Shown: piece by piece, positions 20,976 to 63,655 of the stretch
How the letters are laid out: each line of letters starts with the position of its first letter
Numbering within the stretch: position 1 is the stretch's first letter
Origin: Escherichia coli
GTDB lineage: Bacteria > Pseudomonadota > Gammaproteobacteria > Enterobacterales > Enterobacteriaceae
Length of the DNA: 64,000 nucleotides
Assembly: GCF_009931435.1 (NCBI RefSeq)
Contig: NZ_CP043414.1
Direction: 5' to 3' (one strand)
Notes under the pieces: model-generated
The model's input: only the letters and a program-made list of their open reading frames with translations
What the model was told of the DNA's origin: nothing
The model's database searches: none
Program-made: the position numbers and the translations under genes

Positions 20976-21094
20976 ATATTCATCCCTGAAATGTATTAAT
21001 GAAATAAAAGATATTTTACGCGCAATAAATGTTTGGCGCATTAGTTGTTTGAGCGGAAAATATCTGGAAAGCAGATCACAGTAAATAAAAAAAC

Positions 21095-21235
21095 CTGCTG
21101 GTGAGGCAGGTTCTTTTATTTACTACTTTCAGGCCTAACACCACGGCCTGTGCAACATCGTGTTCCAACGAACGAATTATAACCACCGCTGGACCCCGTT
21201 GCAATTAAGATAATGAGATTTATAATCCTGACAGT
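21095..21235 (-). ncRNA. orzO: Candidate OrzO antitoxin sRNA, copy 1 (boundaries approximate)
   Basis: On the minus strand the hairpin aacctgcctcaccagcaggtt is followed by a 7-T run, i.e. a terminator for a transcript running divergently from the zorO leader. Confidence 0.35.
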
Positions 21236-21497: not shown

Positions 21498-21704
21498 CGG
21501 GCAAATTGAAACGCATCTAAGGGGGAAAATACCGCTTCCCCCTTTAATAAAATGATTACTGTTTTTAATAATTCATCATATAACTCATTTTTATTTATAA
21601 ATTCATCGATTTTATATTCAACGCACCATTTGACCGGGATGTAAATATTTATGGTGGGCTATTGGCAAAAAATATCTGGAAAGTAGATCGCAGAAAATAA
21701 AAGA

Positions 21705-21845
21705 ACCTGCTGGTGAGGCAGGTTCTTTTATTTACTACAGTGACGCTAACTTGCTGATTGTGCAACATTTCGTACCAACGAATAAATTATAACCATATCC
21801 ACACTCCATTGCAATTCAGTGAATGAGATTTATAATCCTGCCCGT
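21705..21845 (-). ncRNA. orzO: Candidate OrzO antitoxin sRNA, copy 2 (boundaries approximate)
   Basis: Same minus-strand hairpin plus U-rich tract as copy 1. Confidence 0.3.
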
Positions 21846-22540: not shown

Positions 22541-25500
22541 TTAATGGAAAATGACGTCGGGTGCGCTTAACGCCTCACTCAAATCAAACACATCAAGTGC
22601 GGCAAAAGTGACAGATTTATTGTCACGGTACACTCGAAGAGAACGGAAGCTCATTAGCGCTTTGCTATCAGCACTGTAGTGGTTAAAACCGGGTGAAAAC
22701 TTAAGGACCAGCCGATACTCGCCCAGGTCATAGACACATGCGTCCTCAAAACCTGACTCCCAGCCTTTGTATCGCATTCCCATAAGTTGCCCAACGGTTG
22801 CGGATTTACCTTCCCAGCGAGTCAGGCTGTTACTGGCTGACTCGTCAGGTGTGAGCAGCACTGTGCGCCGCATCAACTGGCGAAAAGGCGGCATAATTTC
22901 GTAATCGGCAAAAACCTGTGCAAATTCACTGCGCATTTCTGCTGTCATTTCTAACGGGTGGGCAATGCCAATCAGATCATCCGCAGGCAGGTCAATTGGC
23001 TCATCTTGTGCGTTGCAGAATTCCCCCTCTGCGGCCACACGAAAGGCGTTGAGTAAACGACGCGGTTCATTTGCCGGATAAACCGCCCATATTAATCGCT
23101 GAGTAACCAGGCGGGTAAAGGGATGATTAACAAACAGAGAATGAAAATCTGCCAGCGACCAGCGTCGGGTGGTGCGCAGGGCAGTTTCAAGACGTGGGAG
23201 CAGGTTTTTGCTCACCTGAGTGGCATCTTTTTTTAGCCCTTTTAGTCGGGCCAGTGCCTCGGGTGCTTTCAGTTGATCGTCATCGGCGCGCAACCGGGGA
23301 ACGCTTTTCTGGCGAACGTTTTGCTGATCAAAGATAACCGGGTTGAGGTTTTCATCGAAGCGAACGGTAAACTGCCGGGGTCCAAAATCAAATATCAACG
23401 CCTGCGGATCATCCAGGCCCAGTGTTGGGACTAATCTGTCCGCTAACTCTTCCTGGCTTAGTCCACGATTTTCTGCGACCACCTGAAGAAATTCCGCCGC
23501 GTTATCACGTAAGGGACGGGATTTCGCCCGTTGCGATATATGATGCAGCTGTATCAGCGCCATATCATTATTCATCAGGGTAAGTATGTTCAGGCCACTG
23601 ACGGCACGGGCAGATTTGCCTTCCTGTGGCCAGGCGAGGATCTGTGTTGTCAGATCCCGAGCCGTGCTTTCGTCACCAAAGAGACTTAACGCCAAAAAAG
23701 CCCAGTTGTCTTTTGCGGGGGCGCCAGCCTGTTGCCAGGCGGTGAAGAGATCCCTGGCAAAAGCGGCCAGCGTTTGTGGCTGGCAGAACGTTTTCAGTTG
23801 TTCCAGCCCACAATAAAAACGTCCGCCCTGGGTAAAGCGCAGCATTTCGCCGATAATTTCCAGAGCATCATCAGTAACAGGTTGATTATTCGTGATAATT
23901 CTCGGTCTGGACCACATTGTCGGATGCCAGAAATCAGGGGCTTTGGGAATGCGTGCCGGGTAAATGTCCATTGGACCCTGTTTAAGTAATTGCTCTAGGG
24001 AAGGCCATACATCTGTACGCTGCCAACGATTGGCTACAGTTTGTAGCAATTCGCCATGTCCTTGTTCGTAAAGTAAACGCAGGGCAAGTAATGCAGCTTC
24101 GCTATTATCGCTGGATTTGGTGTAGACAAGAGGGATAAGTGCCGTAGCCGTATGCTCCGGCCATTGTAAAATCCACTGGCGAGCCAGATTACGCTGGCCC
24201 GCAAAACGATGCCAGACGCGGGCAACGGGCAGAGCCAGTTCTGTTGCGCCAAAATGAATCAGCAGCGGAAATATCTCTTTGGGATGTCGGGCAAAGGCGG
24301 TGATTAATCCGGGCAAAGCATCGGTACCCAGGACACTTAACAGATATTCTACCCCGGTGTAATGAAAATCAGCCGCGACAATTTGTTGCCAGCACGATAC
24401 CGCCATTTCGCGCGGCATCTGCGCGATAAGGTACAGATTCCAAATCCCCCAACGCTTTTCATTACCATAGTAAAATCCGTGCTGAAAAGTTCGCCACCCT
24501 CCCATCAACGCAATGCTATCTTGTGCCAGTAATGATTTGGTGGCTTCTTCCCGGTACTGTTTAGATTTGGCCTGATGCGCGTGATAAGTATGCAAAAGTC
24601 CTATTGATGTGTATTCTTGCAGTTGCTGAGTATCAAAGGCATCCAGCTGTCCATTAAGAAGACGCTTATTAAATTCCAGGCTATGAACGTCAAAACCTAA
24701 TTCCCGCAAGAAGGTATCCGCCCCTCTGTTAGCAAGACGTTCGTCAAAAGACATGGCGCTAAAATGGTCAATTGCAGTTTGCTGTTCCGGCGTCCAGTGT
24801 TTATTCGGCGACTTGTACGCTTGCGGTACAAGCGTAAGTTCAGGTAGCGAAAAGTGAGTTATGGAAGTCTTTTTCCTGCCACGCCATGGTGGTGAAACGA
24901 GGATTTCAGGCAGACTGCTGTTATTGGTGCTATCAATAACCGGTTTTGGCGAAGCCGATAAATAACTATTCACCACTGCCCGGGCTTGAGTACTTAACGA
25001 CGGGATCACCTCTTCTGCCAGTTGTGGCTGCGATGCCATCAGCGTTTGTAACAGCGTATGCCAGTATTCATCACGTGCTTTTTGCTGTGCAGGCAGCTTT
25101 TTGTCTTCGATGATAGGATAACCAGGGCGCGCAGGGGGGGCTTTTAACGCCAGCAGTTCTGCCAGTGCGGCGAGCGTCGCATGGGGGAAGTTTTTACTGT
25201 ATTTAGCCACACGTTGCAGGCTGGGTTTGTTTTTATCAGCCACCAGTAGCAAGGTGCGGATGACTTGCGGATGGTTAATTTGTACCAGCAGACTGCCGCA
25301 ATCTTCTTTATGTGCATACATCGCGAGGCGCGGAACGGCTGCCAGTCCTTGTTCGCGCAAAAGGGCAGCGCAGGCCGCGTAGCCGAAGTGGTTTTCATGC
25401 GACATGTAGCTGGCTTCGCGATCGCTAAATATATCCTGACTCCAGTAGTGATCGAGTTTTCTGACCGCGCTGGGGTCATTAGCAACAACTTTTAACCACT

Positions 25501-58574: not shown

Positions 58575-59354
58575 ATGACGATGAATTCATTCGAGCGAAG
58601 GAATAAGATCATCCAATTAGTGAATGAACAGGGAACCGTGCTTGTTCAGGATCTGGCGGGAGTATTTGCTGCCTCGGAAGCGACAATCCGTGCCGATTTG
58701 CGCTTTCTCGAACAAAAAGGCGTGGTTACGCGCTTTCATGGCGGTGCGGCGAAAATAATGTCCGGTAATAGTGAAACCGAGACCCAGGAAGTCGGGTTTA
58801 AAGAGCGATTTCAGCTCGCCAGCGCGCCCAAAAACAGAATAGCGCAGGCGGCAGTCAAAATGATCCATGAAGGGATGACCGTTATTCTCGACAGCGGAAG
58901 TACCACAATGCTTATCGCCGAAGGATTAATGACCGCTAAAAATATCACGGTGATTACCAACAGTCTCCCGGCTGCGTTTGCCCTTTCCGAAAATAAAGAC
59001 ATTACTCTGGTCGTCTGCGGTGGCACGGTCCGCCATAAAACGCGCTCGATGCATGGTTCCATTGCCGAGCGTTCATTGCAGGATATTAATGCCGATTTAA
59101 TGTTTGTCGGTGCTGATGGTATTGATGCGGTTAATGGTATTACGACCTTTAATGAAGGTTATTCGATTAGCGGGGCGATGGTCACCGCCGCTAATAAAGT
59201 GATTGCCGTTCTCGATTCATCGAAATTTAACCGTCGCGGTTTTAATCAGGTACTGCCAATCGAAAAAATTGACATTATTATTACCGATGATGCTGTGTCT
59301 GAGGTGGATAAACTGGCATTGCAGAAGACACGGGTAAAATTAATTACGGTGTAG
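58575..59354 (+). CDS. gatR: DeoR-family galactitol operon repressor, uninterrupted (start may be the third codon)
   Basis: 259-aa ORF with N-terminal DeoR helix-turn-helix and C-terminal sugar-phosphate binding domain; no insertion element. Confidence 0.85.
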   Translation: MTMNSFERRNKIIQLVNEQGTVLVQDLAGVFAASEATIRADLRFLEQKGVVTRFHGGAAKIMSGNSETETQEVGFKERFQLASAPKNRIAQAAVKMIHEGMTVILDSGSTTMLIAEGLMTAKNITVITNSLPAAFALSENKDITLVVCGGTVRHKTRSMHGSIAERSLQDINADLMFVGADGIDAVNGITTFNEGYSISGAMVTAANKVIAVLDSSKFNRRGFNQVLPIEKIDIIITDDAVSEVDKLALQKTRVKLITV

Positions 59355-59435: not shown

Positions 59436-60335
59436 TTAACGCAATAATGGACAATCTGGTGGTAATCGACAACGCAACGCCGCCGGAAGTATTTCAATAT
59501 GAAAGTTTTGTCCGCTCAACGGTTCGCCATCAAGATTAAAAGTGATTTCGTGTGGGGCTTGTATATCAAACCACGACGAAGCGCCTTCGATAATATTCGG
59601 GTTATCTTCGTCAGATTTTAAGGTTGATACGAGAGCCGGAAGAATTTCATCGCCGGTAAAAATGCGCAGTTGCAGCAAGCCATCGTTAATTAACGCGTTC
59701 GGACACAATTGCTGACCGCCACCGGCCTGACGCCCGTTACCAATACCAATGACCAGGGCGTCACCTTGCCAGTGAAAGTTTTCACCGCGGATTTCACAAC
59801 GGTCCGGTTGCAGAGTATCCATGCGCATTAAGCCATGAATGATGTAAGAGACGCCACCCAGCGCGGCTTTTAATTTTTCCGGCGTTTCTGTGGTAATACG
59901 CGTCCCAAATCCGCCTGTCGCCATATTAATAAAACAGGTTTGTTTGTTGACCTGCGCCATATCTATCGCAATGGCGTTACCGGCAATTGCCAGTTTCAGC
60001 GCCTTATCCAGTGCCTCAGGAATCCCTACACTGGTGGCAAAATCATTGGCGGTTCCTAATGGCAAAATTCCCAGCGCGGGTATGTCATCCCCCTCACACT
60101 GAATCAACGCCGTAGAAACTTCATTAATGGTGCCATCGCCACCACCGGCAATCACCGTTGCGACGCCCAACTTCCGGGCCTCCTCTACATATCGTGCGGC
60201 ATCGCCTTTCTCCCAGGTGACCCGCACATGGATCGTCATTCCTTCCTCACGCAACAGCATAATTGCTTCGCGCAAGGGTAGATTGTCAGTACTTTTGCCA
60301 TTAAGAATCAGTAAGCTGGCGGGAAATTCTGCCAT
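59436..60335 (-). CDS. yegS: Lipid kinase YegS (diacylglycerol-kinase catalytic domain family)
   Basis: 299-aa ORF; GGDGT motif ([12 protein letters not shown]). Confidence 0.9.
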
Positions 60336-60741
60336 GATCGTATGTGCCTTTATGATTGGTCTGTAGATAGTGTAGAGCAGAAAACAAAAGGTGGAGTCAG
60401 AACAGGATGAAAGTCGGAGGATAAAAAGTCAGTTCAAGTATGGAGGATTCAGTGGTTACCACCAGGAGCTTGCAATGGGGGACAGCGAATACTAACGGCT
60501 GCCACCGATAAATTTCAAAAAAGAGCATATACCTAATATTCAACTAAACAGTGGCATCTTCAATATAATATATTAAAGCCCCCATGGAGTTACCCTGAAG
60601 GGCCTCAATGTCCGTAATTCCTACTTATGTAGGAAATGTTGTACAGAACATTTATTATAATCCTATTCAATTATAATAATCATGCCATTATTATATTTAA
60701 ACACTAGAGAGTGTCGTTGGTATTTAATGGGGGAAGGTGAG

Positions 60742-61059
60742 ATGAAAAAGATAGCTGCTATATCATTAATTAGTATTTTTATTGTGTCTGGTTGTGCTGT
60801 GCATAATGATGAGACAAGTATCGGTAAATTTGGTCTTGCATATAAAAGTAATATTCAGCGTAAACTCGATAACCAATACTACACCGAAGCCGAAGCTTCT
60901 TTAGCCAGGGGCAGAATATCTGGTGCAGAAAATATAGTAAAAAATGATGCAGCCCATTTCTGTGTTACTCAGGGCAAAAAAATGCAGATAGTTGACCTGA
61001 AGACAGAAGGTGCAGGATTACATGGCGTCGCTCGTCTGACATTCAAATGTGGAGAGTGA
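60742..61059 (+). CDS. yegR: Small lipoprotein YegR
   Basis: Start MKKIAAISLISIFIVSGC (lipobox) gives 105 aa. Confidence 0.75.
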   Translation: MKKIAAISLISIFIVSGCAVHNDETSIGKFGLAYKSNIQRKLDNQYYTEAEASLARGRISGAENIVKNDAAHFCVTQGKKMQIVDLKTEGAGLHGVARLTFKCGE

Positions 61060-61217
61060 GAATATTTTTTGGTAAGCGTCAAACATGCGCGTTCTGGTTG
61101 TGCTTAGCCGGAACCTGTGCGAGCACGATGCCGTTACGTGAAAGGCATCGTGCTATGAAGGGAGATTCTATCGATGTGGTCAATGGAAGACGGTGACCAG
61201 GGATAGGGCTTATGCAT

Positions 61218-61244
61218 AAAAAATAAGCCCGTGTAAGGGAGATT
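61218..61244. other. Unoccupied P2-type phage attachment core (attB) within the cyaR 3' end
   Basis: aaaaaataagcccgtgtaagggagatt matches the P2 att core as I recall it; no prophage genes are present between yegR and yegQ. Confidence 0.6.
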
Positions 61245-61304
61245 ACACAGGCTAAGGAGGTGGTTCCTGGTACAGCTAGCATTTTATGGGTTATGTTTTT
61301 CAGC
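61218..61304 (-). ncRNA. cyaR: Hfq-dependent, CRP-activated sRNA CyaR (RyeE)
   Basis: Minus-strand sequence gctgaaaaacataacccataaaatgctagctgtaccaggaaccacctccttagcctgtgtaatctcccttacacgggcttatttttt matches CyaR as I recall it, including the terminator hairpin and U-tail. Confidence 0.85.
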
Positions 61305-61388
61305 GAAACGGATGATAACCTTAATAAATGCAGCTGTATGTGATCGGTTTCTAAGAATTTTCCATCCGGGAAAAATAATCGAAATTAA

Positions 61389-62750
61389 TCACTTACCGTG
61401 GGGGTTACGCGTGGTTTCCCCGGAGAAATGACGCATCAGCAGCGCGTAATTTAGCTCAAGATCCTGCGGCACCGGGAGCCACACAGTATAACCATCGCCT
61501 GGTGCTACCGGCATAGCTTCGCCTTTGGCGTTTTCCATGTGCTCAAGGGTAAAGTTAATGTTGCCTTGCGGCGTCATCAGCTCAAGGCTGTCGCCAACGG
61601 AGAATTTATTTTTCACCGCTACCGCCGCGAGGTCCCCCTTGCGCTCACCGGTAAACTCACCAACAAACTGCTGGCGGTCAGAAACCGAATAACCGTATTC
61701 GTAGTTCTGATAATCGTCGTGAGTATGACGACGCAGGAAACCTTCGGTATAGCCACGATGCGCCAGACCTTCCAGAGTTTCCAGCAGGCTGGTATCGAAC
61801 GGTTTGCCCGCAGCGGCATCATCGATAGCTTTACGATAAACCTGTGCGGTGCGTGCGCAATAGTAGAAAGATTTAGTACGGCCTTCGATCTTCAGCGAAT
61901 GCACGCCCATTTTGGTCAGGCGTTCTACATGGGCGATGGCGCGCAGATCTTTCGAGTTCATGATGTAAGTGCCGTGCTTATCTTCAAACGCGGTCATATA
62001 CTCGCCCGGACGCTGGGCCTCTTCGATCATAAACACTTTGTCGGTTGGTGCGCCGATACCCAGCGTCGGCTCAACATTTTGCACCGGAATCGGCTCGTAC
62101 TTGTGTACGATGTTGCCAACATCATCTTCTTTCCCTTCCTGGACGTTGTACTCCCAGCGGCAGGCGTTGGTGCAGGTGCCCTGGTTCGGGTCGCGCTTGT
62201 TGATATAGCCAGAGAGCAGGCAGCGACCGGAGTAGGCCATGCACAGCGCGCCGTGAACGAAGATCTCGATCTCCATATCCGGCACCTGATTGCGGATCTC
62301 TTCAATCTCTTCCAGCGACAGCTCGCGAGAGAGGATCACGCGGGTCAGGCCCATTTGCTGCCAGAATTTCACCGTCGCCCAGTTCACGGCGTTAGCCTGC
62401 ACCGAAAGGTGGATCGGCATTTCAGGGAAGTGCTCACGCACCAGCATAATCAGCCCTGGATCGGACATAATCAGCGCATCCGGCCCCATTTCCACCACCG
62501 GTTTCAGGTCACGGATAAAGGTTTTCAGCTTGGCGTTGTGCGGTGCAATGTTGACCACGACATAAAACTTTTTCCCCAGCGCGTGGGCTTCATTGATGCC
62601 GAGCTGAAGATTTTCGTGGTTGAATTCGTTGTTGCGCACACGCAGGGAATAACGCGGCTGGCCCGCATAAACAGCATCTGCGCCATAAGCGAAAGCGTAA
62701 CGCATATTTTTCAGCGTTCCCGCCGGGGAAAGGAGTTCCGGTTTAAACAT
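61389..62750 (-). CDS. yegQ: Peptidase U32-family protein
   Basis: 453-aa ORF. Confidence 0.85.
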   Translation of the reverse strand: MFKPELLSPAGTLKNMRYAFAYGADAVYAGQPRYSLRVRNNEFNHENLQLGINEAHALGKKFYVVVNIAPHNAKLKTFIRDLKPVVEMGPDALIMSDPGLIMLVREHFPEMPIHLSVQANAVNWATVKFWQQMGLTRVILSRELSLEEIEEIRNQVPDMEIEIFVHGALCMAYSGRCLLSGYINKRDPNQGTCTNACRWEYNVQEGKEDDVGNIVHKYEPIPVQNVEPTLGIGAPTDKVFMIEEAQRPGEYMTAFEDKHGTYIMNSKDLRAIAHVERLTKMGVHSLKIEGRTKSFYYCARTAQVYRKAIDDAAAGKPFDTSLLETLEGLAHRGYTEGFLRRHTHDDYQNYEYGYSVSDRQQFVGEFTGERKGDLAAVAVKNKFSVGDSLELMTPQGNINFTLEHMENAKGEAMPVAPGDGYTVWLPVPQDLELNYALLMRHFSGETTRNPHGK

Positions 62751-62852: not shown

Positions 62853-63149
62853 TTAGCTCCAGTGTAAATGTCTGGTGGCGTCCTGGTTTTGGTTAAGGAT
62901 ACGAATGACGATAATTTCCCCTGGTGATTGCAGGAAATAAATGACGTGGCGTTCAAAAGAAAGAACAAAAATACCTTCGCCTAATTCAGGTCTGGGCGTA
63001 CCTATATTATTGTTACTCAGAATCTGGAGAACGTCTGAAAGATGTTCCACATATCTGTCGGCTTGTGGTTCGCCGAAATGGTGATAGCTGTAATACCAGA
63101 TGCCTTCTAAATCCTCATTGGCTTTTGGCATGAGTTTAATAATACGCAC
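62853..63149 (-). CDS. ParE/RelE-superfamily type II toxin
   Basis: 98-aa ORF with ParE-like motifs (EDLEGIWYY, IIVIRILNQNQD); begins 2 bp after the stop of the upstream antitoxin-like gene. Confidence 0.7.
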   Translation of the reverse strand: MRIIKLMPKANEDLEGIWYYSYHHFGEPQADRYVEHLSDVLQILSNNNIGTPRPELGEGIFVLSFERHVIYFLQSPGEIIVIRILNQNQDATRHLHWS

Positions 63150-63150
63150 A

Positions 63151-63402
63151 TTATTTCCTTATCCCTGCTTTCACCTTCCGTAAGAACGCGTCCTTTTCCC
63201 ACGGCTGAGCTTCACCACTACTCAACCCTTCTGCGAGCATGTCACGTAACGCTTGCAGGCGAGACTCTGCTTGCTTTTCTCGAAGTAATCGCAGTGACTC
63301 ACGGATCACTTCGCTTTGGGTGCGATAGTCGCCGGATTCAATTAAGGACTCGATAAATTCACGCAACTCATCGCCGAGATCAACCGTCATCGTTCTGGCC
63401 AT
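63151..63402 (-). CDS. ParD-like (ribbon-helix-helix) type II antitoxin
   Basis: Start MARTMTVDLGDELREFIESLIESGDYRTQSEVIRESLRLLREKQ matches the COG3609 ParD pattern and gives 83 aa; the ORF track extends 15 codons further upstream. Confidence 0.7.
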   Translation of the reverse strand: MARTMTVDLGDELREFIESLIESGDYRTQSEVIRESLRLLREKQAESRLQALRDMLAEGLSSGEAQPWEKDAFLRKVKAGIRK

Positions 63403-63655
63403 TTTACGCCCGCCTGTAAGTAAAAATCTTACATCAGTGTATGTCATAAACCGGATAGCGTCACGAAAGTATTAGAAGATATTTTGGCACATGAACATGT
63501 TCAGGAGGATAAGTATGGGATGGTAAACAAAGAAAGCACAACGAGTGCTCGTCAGTGCCCACTATTTTAATGGCGGCGGTTACTCTTAATTATTAATAAC
63601 TAAGCGTTATTTGGATATAAAGCCGGACGCCAACAACCCACGCCCGGCATCGTAA

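Follow-up and report, generated by a model that had tools for sequence, protein, structure and literature searches.

The short interval between yegR and yegQ in Escherichia coli raises the question of whether the attachment site for phage P2 that it appears to contain is truly vacant, and, if so, whether a site long treated as a plain bacterial attB is indeed that, or carries traces of an older occupation. We addressed this in a 64,000-nucleotide stretch of the E. coli contig NZ_CP043414.1 (RefSeq assembly GCF_009931435.1), hereafter the window, whose features in the region of interest are collected in Table 1. A first-pass annotation, made by a model from the letters alone, had placed in a gap of about 330 bp a full-length CyaR small RNA gene on the minus strand, and had identified the 27 bp at its 3' end as the core of the P2 attachment site. 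By the bounds of the open reading frames the gap spans 61060-61388, or 329 bp, and the remaining parts of this description likewise agree with what is reported below.

Table 1. Features of the yegS-yegQ region, in coordinates of the window
Feature	Position	Strand	Remarks
gatR position, DeoR-family repressor gene	58575-59354	+	left of yegS
yegS (lipid kinase)	59436-60335	-	ORF; named yegS in matching E. coli records; left-side anchor for the spacing comparison
Putative ancestral bacterial arm, upstream region of yegS	60336-60422		in other species contiguous with the core at cyaR
Degenerate copy of the P2 att core, AAAAAGTCAGTTCAAGTATGGAGGATT	60423-60449	+	18/27; read as a decayed attL core
Interior of the ~795-bp segment	60450-61217		low GC; holds yegR; absent from related species
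yegR, predicted lipoprotein, 105 aa	60742-61059	+	longest ORF starts at 60682; stop codon ends at 61059
Hairpin, 11-bp stem, no T-tract	61122-61154		in the left arm; read from the sequence
Candidate fossil of a P2-type P arm (putative arm-type Int site), TCGATGTGGTCAATG-GAAGACGGTGACCAG	61171-61200	+
P2 attachment core (attB locI), AAAAAATAAGCCCGTGTAAGGGAGATT	61218-61244	+	intact, unoccupied; 27/27 to the P2 attP core
cyaR (ryeE) sRNA gene, full length	61221-61306	-	Rfam RF00112, 100.7 bits
CyaR intrinsic terminator stem-loop	61226-61253	-	11 pairs, then U-tract
cyaR upstream region	61307-61388	-	identical in K-12 and UTI89
yegQ/trhP, right-hand neighbour	61389-62750	-	ORF

The 27-mer is identical at every position to nucleotides 24356-24382 of the P2 genome (AF063097), which are annotated there both as "attP" and as "Int attP core", and the identity extends to 28 of 28 when the flanking base at 61217 is counted (P2 24355-24382). 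The match was found by a search of 50,697 phage records, and in a blastn comparison of the whole P2 genome with the 64-kb window the att core is the only significant match (E 5.5e-7). A tblastn search with 41 P2 proteins detected none of them in the window, a single match being attributable to chance, and the yegR-yegQ gap is free of phage genes. The host arms are contiguous across the core, and the 201 bp around it are 100% identical to many E. coli genomes. These comparisons identify 61218-61244 as the bacterial attachment site of P2, known as locI in E. coli C, in an intact and unoccupied state. The core is the same as that of locI and of attP, lies in the same place (the 3' end of cyaR, between yegQ and yegR) and coincides with the break point of P2-type prophages elsewhere in E. 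coli, with no difference of substance; as far as nucleotide comparison reaches, it is the locI site proper and not a mere lookalike. The original descriptions of locI are reportedly those of Yu et al. from 1989 and of Barreiro and Haggard-Ljungquist from 1992.

It could be held that the match is coincidental, or that the site is disrupted or occupied in some unnoticed manner and is not usable in this strain. The probability of this is negligible: no point in its favor was found, and direct comparison refutes it, given the complete identity to an annotated attP core, with or without the additional flanking base, the lack of any insert relative to the genomes with the identical 201-bp sequence, and the use of the very same core as the junction of P2-type prophages in hundreds more. 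Nothing argues against the reading of the site as an empty attB, and this is very probably the best explanation of the locus as a whole, the matter of an older insertion being a separate part of it to which we attach a lower confidence (see below).

The cyaR gene itself is covered by the Rfam CyaR_RyeE model over positions 1-85 of 85, with a score well above the gathering threshold of 47 bits and no truncation, and this is the sole Rfam family represented in the gap. Folding of the RNA yields a terminator with an 11-pair stem and a 6-nt loop followed by the U-tract UAUUUUUU. The att core overlaps the last 24 nt of cyaR, and thereby comprises the loop, the 3' half of the terminator stem and the U-tract. 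As an sRNA, CyaR is characterized by a promoter dependent on CRP-cAMP and by Hfq-dependent regulation of targets such as ompX; the promoter and its CRP site presumably lie in the 82 bp upstream of the gene, which are identical to those of K-12. A further hairpin in the left arm, 63 bp downstream of yegR, has a perfect 11-bp stem (agcacgatgcc / ggcatcgtgct) with an 11-nt loop and is not followed by a T-tract on either strand. It is placed roughly as the P2 ogr terminator is relative to the P arm, the two having no sequence similarity.

Certain other features of the window may be recorded at this point. The gene at the gatR position is an intact 259-aa reading frame, as against an incomplete pseudogene annotated in the record of a K-12 derivative. 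Between yegQ and yegP, a parE/parD type II toxin-antitoxin pair is present on the minus strand (62853-63447; Pfam ParE_toxin, 3.4e-13, and ParD_antitoxin, 7.1e-19). K-12 has only a gap of ~146 bp at this position, and the 905-bp segment with the pair is found in 1843 of 5426 complete E. coli genomes. Further away, two minus-strand matches to the OrzO-P antitoxin sRNA (RF02083), at 21087-21162 and 21699-21772 with 98.9 and 87.3 bits, indicate a duplicated zor-orz type I toxin-antitoxin locus.

The first-pass annotation had contrasted this strain with K-12, stated to carry a cryptic P2 remnant (ogrK, yegZ) at the same position, and the comparison bears this out. In a K-12 derivative the left arm and the core, both the same as here, are separated by 630 extra bp, which alignment and annotation resolve into ogrK and a "phage late control D" pseudogene (yegZ) that is truncated at its N terminus, whereas these 630 bp are absent from the window, and tblastn finds no match to Ogr or D in it. 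The two strains thus share the locus, the right-hand core and the left arm, and differ in the phage DNA that K-12 has between a 19-nt core copy and the full core. Altogether K-12 has three copies of the core: one matching at 18 of 27 positions, a truncated one that retains the first 19 nt (22/27 over the complete 27-mer) and precedes the insert, and one that is perfect.

What is not borne out is the implied rarity of the empty site. Of the 5426 complete E. coli genomes, 4217 (~78%) match a 201-bp probe centered on the core without interruption, and 4562 match an 801-bp probe when its parts are joined across small inserts, so that ~345 genomes (4562 minus 4217) have a small remnant of the K-12 type and the site is split in ~860. 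In the split genomes that were sampled the break falls at probe position 595 or 125, both of which correspond to 61244 in the window, i.e. the right edge of the core. Two occupied genomes show yegR, the arm and the left core followed directly by genes for a phage integrase, the P2 repressor C and Cox, while viral contigs show P2 ogr, its terminator, the P arm and the core, followed by cyaR. Both junctions of integrated P2-type prophages are therefore formed by the same core, with int adjoining the left copy, and ogr and the P arm adjoining the copy in cyaR. A study that compared E. coli laboratory strains gives cyaR as an insertion site of P2 prophages, occupied by Wphi2 in W, by "ogr-D'" in K-12 and by P2*B in B, and empty in Crooks (PMC3032704); under its older name, ryeE, the gene is a previously known phage target (PMC3603311). 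Thus, the empty P2 site at cyaR is a correct finding, but an already known one that represents the ordinary state of most E. coli.

Two observations pertain to sequences related to this site. Strains of the UTI89 type (locus L003, 910-1100) have ~170 extra bp right after the yegR stop codon, between positions corresponding to ~61064 and 61065; this longer form occurs in ~5 of 30 evenly sampled genomes, and since L194, a separate Escherichia lineage, has retained sequence similar to the right end of the extra stretch, the form in the window may have arisen by deletion. A 9.7-kb contig from a metagenome bin labeled "MAG: Collinsella sp." (L281) encodes P2 T, U, D and ogr at 97-100% identity to the P2 proteins, followed by a core of the E. 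coli type and cyaR, and is almost certainly mis-binned E. coli DNA.

IHF bends the P arm of the P2 attP. Integrase bound to the arms would, together with IHF, pair the attP core with the identical 27 bp of the host and exchange strands within them, and the 27 bp supplied by the phage would then rebuild the CyaR terminator at attR, leaving the sRNA functional. The second copy of the core would end up in attL, beside int, and would have no function for the host. In a strain without an insert, such as the present one, CyaR would end in its native context and the preferred site would lie open to P2-type phages. This is comparable to phage 186 (tRNA-Ile), Fels-2 and SopE-phi (ssrA) and the use of ryeB in Salmonella, where a phage copy of the 3' end of an RNA gene regenerates that gene, with the difference from the tRNA and tmRNA targets that the part used here is the terminator of an Hfq-dependent sRNA and not a tRNA. 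In integration at the 3' ends of RNA genes a hairpin-containing terminator serves as the core (PMC3448106, PMC3603311), and sites other than tRNA genes are reportedly used more often by the P2-type group of integrases (PMC3448106). The integrase binds arm-type repeats with the consensus tgTGGaCa on both sides of attP, and these repeats are elements of the phage, being common to P2-like phages with different host sites (PMC3448106).

Comparison with related species indicates that the left arm of the site has a more complex history. We fetched cyaR loci from 120 species genomes, in 84 of which yegS, the conserved left neighbor of cyaR in other Enterobacteriaceae, is visible on the relevant side. 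In 41 of these 84 loci, from 41 species, the start of yegS is separated from the core by 73-116 bp, as opposed to 882 bp in the window. The loci with short spacing span many genera, such as Klebsiella, Enterobacter, Kosakonia, Cedecea and Atlantibacter; two of them belong to Escherichia genomes that are not E. coli proper (L285, labeled "E. coli" E69, and L287, Escherichia sp. E1V33), whose YegS proteins have 94-95% amino acid identity to that of the window. The window aligns with the short-spacing genomes from yegS to 60427, four bases into their core, and resumes at 61218; with E69 and E1V33 the arm at 60336-60422 is aligned as far as the first bases of the core. The extra segment in E. coli accordingly extends over 60423-61217, or 795 bp with the degenerate core included.

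The degenerate core occupies the position of the ancestral one, 795 bp to the left of the intact core, and is also present in K-12; only four 27-mers on both strands of the window reach 18 of 27 matches to the core, the true core being one of them. Relative to the other species, the insertion thus starts exactly at the att core and has a core repeat at both ends, of which the left copy has decayed (18/27). Its GC content is 31-38% over 60500-60900, compared with ~50% outside the segment, and blastn against the 120 species loci found no counterpart except for 43 bp in L194. A contiguous yegS-cyaR junction of the ancestral type was found in none of the 5426 complete E. coli genomes. The only one of them that joins both halves of the probe for this junction is E. 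coli FDAARGOS_1077 (NZ_CP068155.1), in which the halves are ~490 bp apart and not 795, pointing to a shortened yegR segment.

A second trace lies immediately beside the intact core, and bears on the claim of the first-pass annotation that no prophage remnant exists between yegR and yegQ; this holds for genes, of which there are none, and fails for sequence, given what appears to be a decayed P arm. The stretch TCGATGTGGTCAATG-GAAGACGGTGACCAG at 61171-61200 aligns at 27 of 31 positions with the P arm of P2, TCGATGTGGTCAATGTGTGGAC-GTGACCAG, which is annotated as "Int P arm". The local score of 38 compares with 14.8 +/- 2.2 in dinucleotide shuffles and was reached by none of 1000. Of the two TGTGGTCA repeats in this fossil, the first has been preserved intact and the second has degenerated. 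It lies on the same strand and in the same order as in the phage, at a distance of 17 bp to the left of the core as compared with 33 bp, including an IHF site, in P2. The match is specific to the P2-type phages that target cyaR, whereas the other type of arm, seen in Ogr-encoding viral contigs, scores only 18. The Escherichia lineage L194, which lies outside E. coli, has kept the IHF-site part of a P2-like arm and lost the Int repeats, and shares with the window the outer part of the arm (61080-61122). From their sequences, the arms of the window and L194 seem to go back to a single arm that eroded independently in each; no E. coli genome was found to have the L194 variant. Neither the arm fossil nor the degenerate second core is mentioned in the papers searched, a set to which the original locI papers and the CyaR paper of De Lay and Gottesman did not belong, and the two are probably a new, minor addition to what is known of the site. 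A 10-mer, AAGGGAGATT (61158-61167), that repeats the right end of the core was rejected as a further trace, K-12 and UTI89 having AAGGAGGATT in its place, which makes the repeat a matter of chance.

The interior of the segment offers less. No significant trace of an integrase or other P2 protein was obtained with tblastn over 60400-61220, a very permissive search returning only noise, and neither yegR nor the rest of the interior was found in free phage genomes. A match of YegR to PHROG 21109 was considered as a sign of phage origin and dismissed, as the only two phage-database records with yegR are a prophage record and a junction clone, both with E. coli flanks. Nearly all members of the YegR family come from E. 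coli and Shigella. The few scattered homologues from elsewhere (47-51% identity), such as that of Enterobacter sp. BIDMC 29 (L288, 6001-6318) and those of L291-L293, are never near cyaR but in IS-rich or ordinary chromosomal settings, namely IS- and transposase-rich stretches by an MFS transporter gene, or between genes for UDG and a dehydrogenase. The sequence to the right of the degenerate core shows a weak similarity to the P' side of P2, with its Cox sites and the 3' end of int (18/24 at a collinear offset); a second collinear patch is present, and the comparison, with a p of only ~0.01-0.03, is no more than suggestive.

Remains of P2-type elements beside cyaR are not limited to E. coli. 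A full P2-like prophage is present there in Citrobacter youngae (L191), and decayed prophages with fragments of int, D and ogr are seen in another C. youngae locus (L185) and in Enterobacter sp. (L168), while the P arm alone adjoins cyaR in E. albertii (L169) and four other loci (L188, L244, L248 and L264), the bearers of a lone arm including Trabulsiella and several Citrobacter. The E. coli segment resembles the remnants of L185, L168 and L169 in that a P2-type P arm adjoins the core at cyaR and phage genes are few or lacking. It differs from them in that they are species-specific, and larger or differently composed, whereas the ~795-bp segment with yegR splits the ancestral junction in each of the 5426 complete E. 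coli genomes. In other genera, the terminator stem of cyaR shows compensatory changes, e.g. GCCTGCG...CGCAGGC (among loci L168-L287), and the P2-like elements beside it, including those of the viral contigs L135 and L147, carry a variant of the core that matches the stem of the host. This covariation suggests that the phage cores track the sRNA terminator of the host.

Given these observations, we consider it likely that an ancient insertion of the P2 type, by now eroded almost completely, has its right end in the standard P2 site of E. coli. An earlier element would have integrated at the ancestral yegS-cyaR junction and subsequently eroded to the present ~795 bp, leaving behind the decayed attL core, the decayed P arm beside the intact core, and yegR as an orphan gene. 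As a part of the CyaR terminator, the attR core would have been kept perfect, and the attL core, for which nothing selects, would have decayed. The modern P2 phages would then be using the old attR core as their attB, and the ogrK-D' remnant of K-12 would represent a second, younger layer of the same process. The points in support of such an insertion are the score of the P arm, the arm of L194, the partial left core, the spacing in the outgroups, the low GC content, the absence of the ancestral junction from all the E. coli genomes, the three cores of K-12, and the parallel remnants beside cyaR in other species. We also lean, if only slightly, towards a fuller version of this history, in which the textbook empty site would be the attR of that ancient insertion, eroded to ~795 bp, holding yegR and interrupting the yegS-cyaR junction in all complete E. 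coli checked; in which the arm-type site 17 bp away might aid the preference of P2 for this core; and in which P2-like elements would repeatedly have come to rest and decayed at the cyaR terminator across the Enterobacteriaceae, with phage cores that co-vary with the stem of the host.

The same data allow for other histories. In one of these the site is a pristine attB, the left arm being host DNA, its likeness to the P arm due to chance or to a host feature that phages copied or exploit, and the yegR segment being of an origin unrelated to att sites. The lack of phage protein remnants, the absence of the interior of the segment and of yegR from free phages, the weakness of the P' similarity, and the occurrence of YegR homologues in non-phage contexts all agree with it, and are at the same time the points that count against an eroded insertion. 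It is nevertheless distinctly unlikely, in that the P-arm match is far beyond what shuffled sequences attain, is collinear with the core and adjacent to it, and is to the arm of the cyaR-targeting phages and not to a generic consensus; moreover, the insertion begins at the ancestral core position, precisely where the 18/27 copy lies. P2-like phages that use different host sites have arm-type sites in common as elements of their own (PMC3448106), which also makes transfer from phage to host the simpler direction.

The yegR segment and the P-arm fossil could, in addition, stem from separate events, for instance if yegR came with one element, and a P2 prophage that inserted at the core later was deleted almost completely, down to its P arm, in the manner of ogrK-D' but taken further. 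That successive layers accumulate at this spot is evident from the three core copies of K-12, and the 170-bp indel just after yegR in UTI89-type strains and the arm of L194, differently organized yet sharing 61080-61122, fit with such layering. Against it, no more than one additional, degenerate core can be detected in the window, and two events would be expected to leave more junction scars. We regard this layered course as unlikely, and on present data it is hard to tell from the derivation of the entire segment from a single insertion, which we prefer.

That a known site is unoccupied in one more strain matters little in itself, other than that it would leave the strain open to a P2-type prophage at this place. 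If the older insertion is real, a site long treated as a plain bacterial attB would bear the scars of an earlier one, and the origin of the orphan gene yegR would be explained. Selection on an sRNA terminator would then keep one att core perfect while its twin decays, making the spot reusable for layer after layer of integration. An eroded insertion at this place would thus be of modest evolutionary interest, mainly with respect to the origin of yegR and to the role of sRNA terminators as reusable points of integration.
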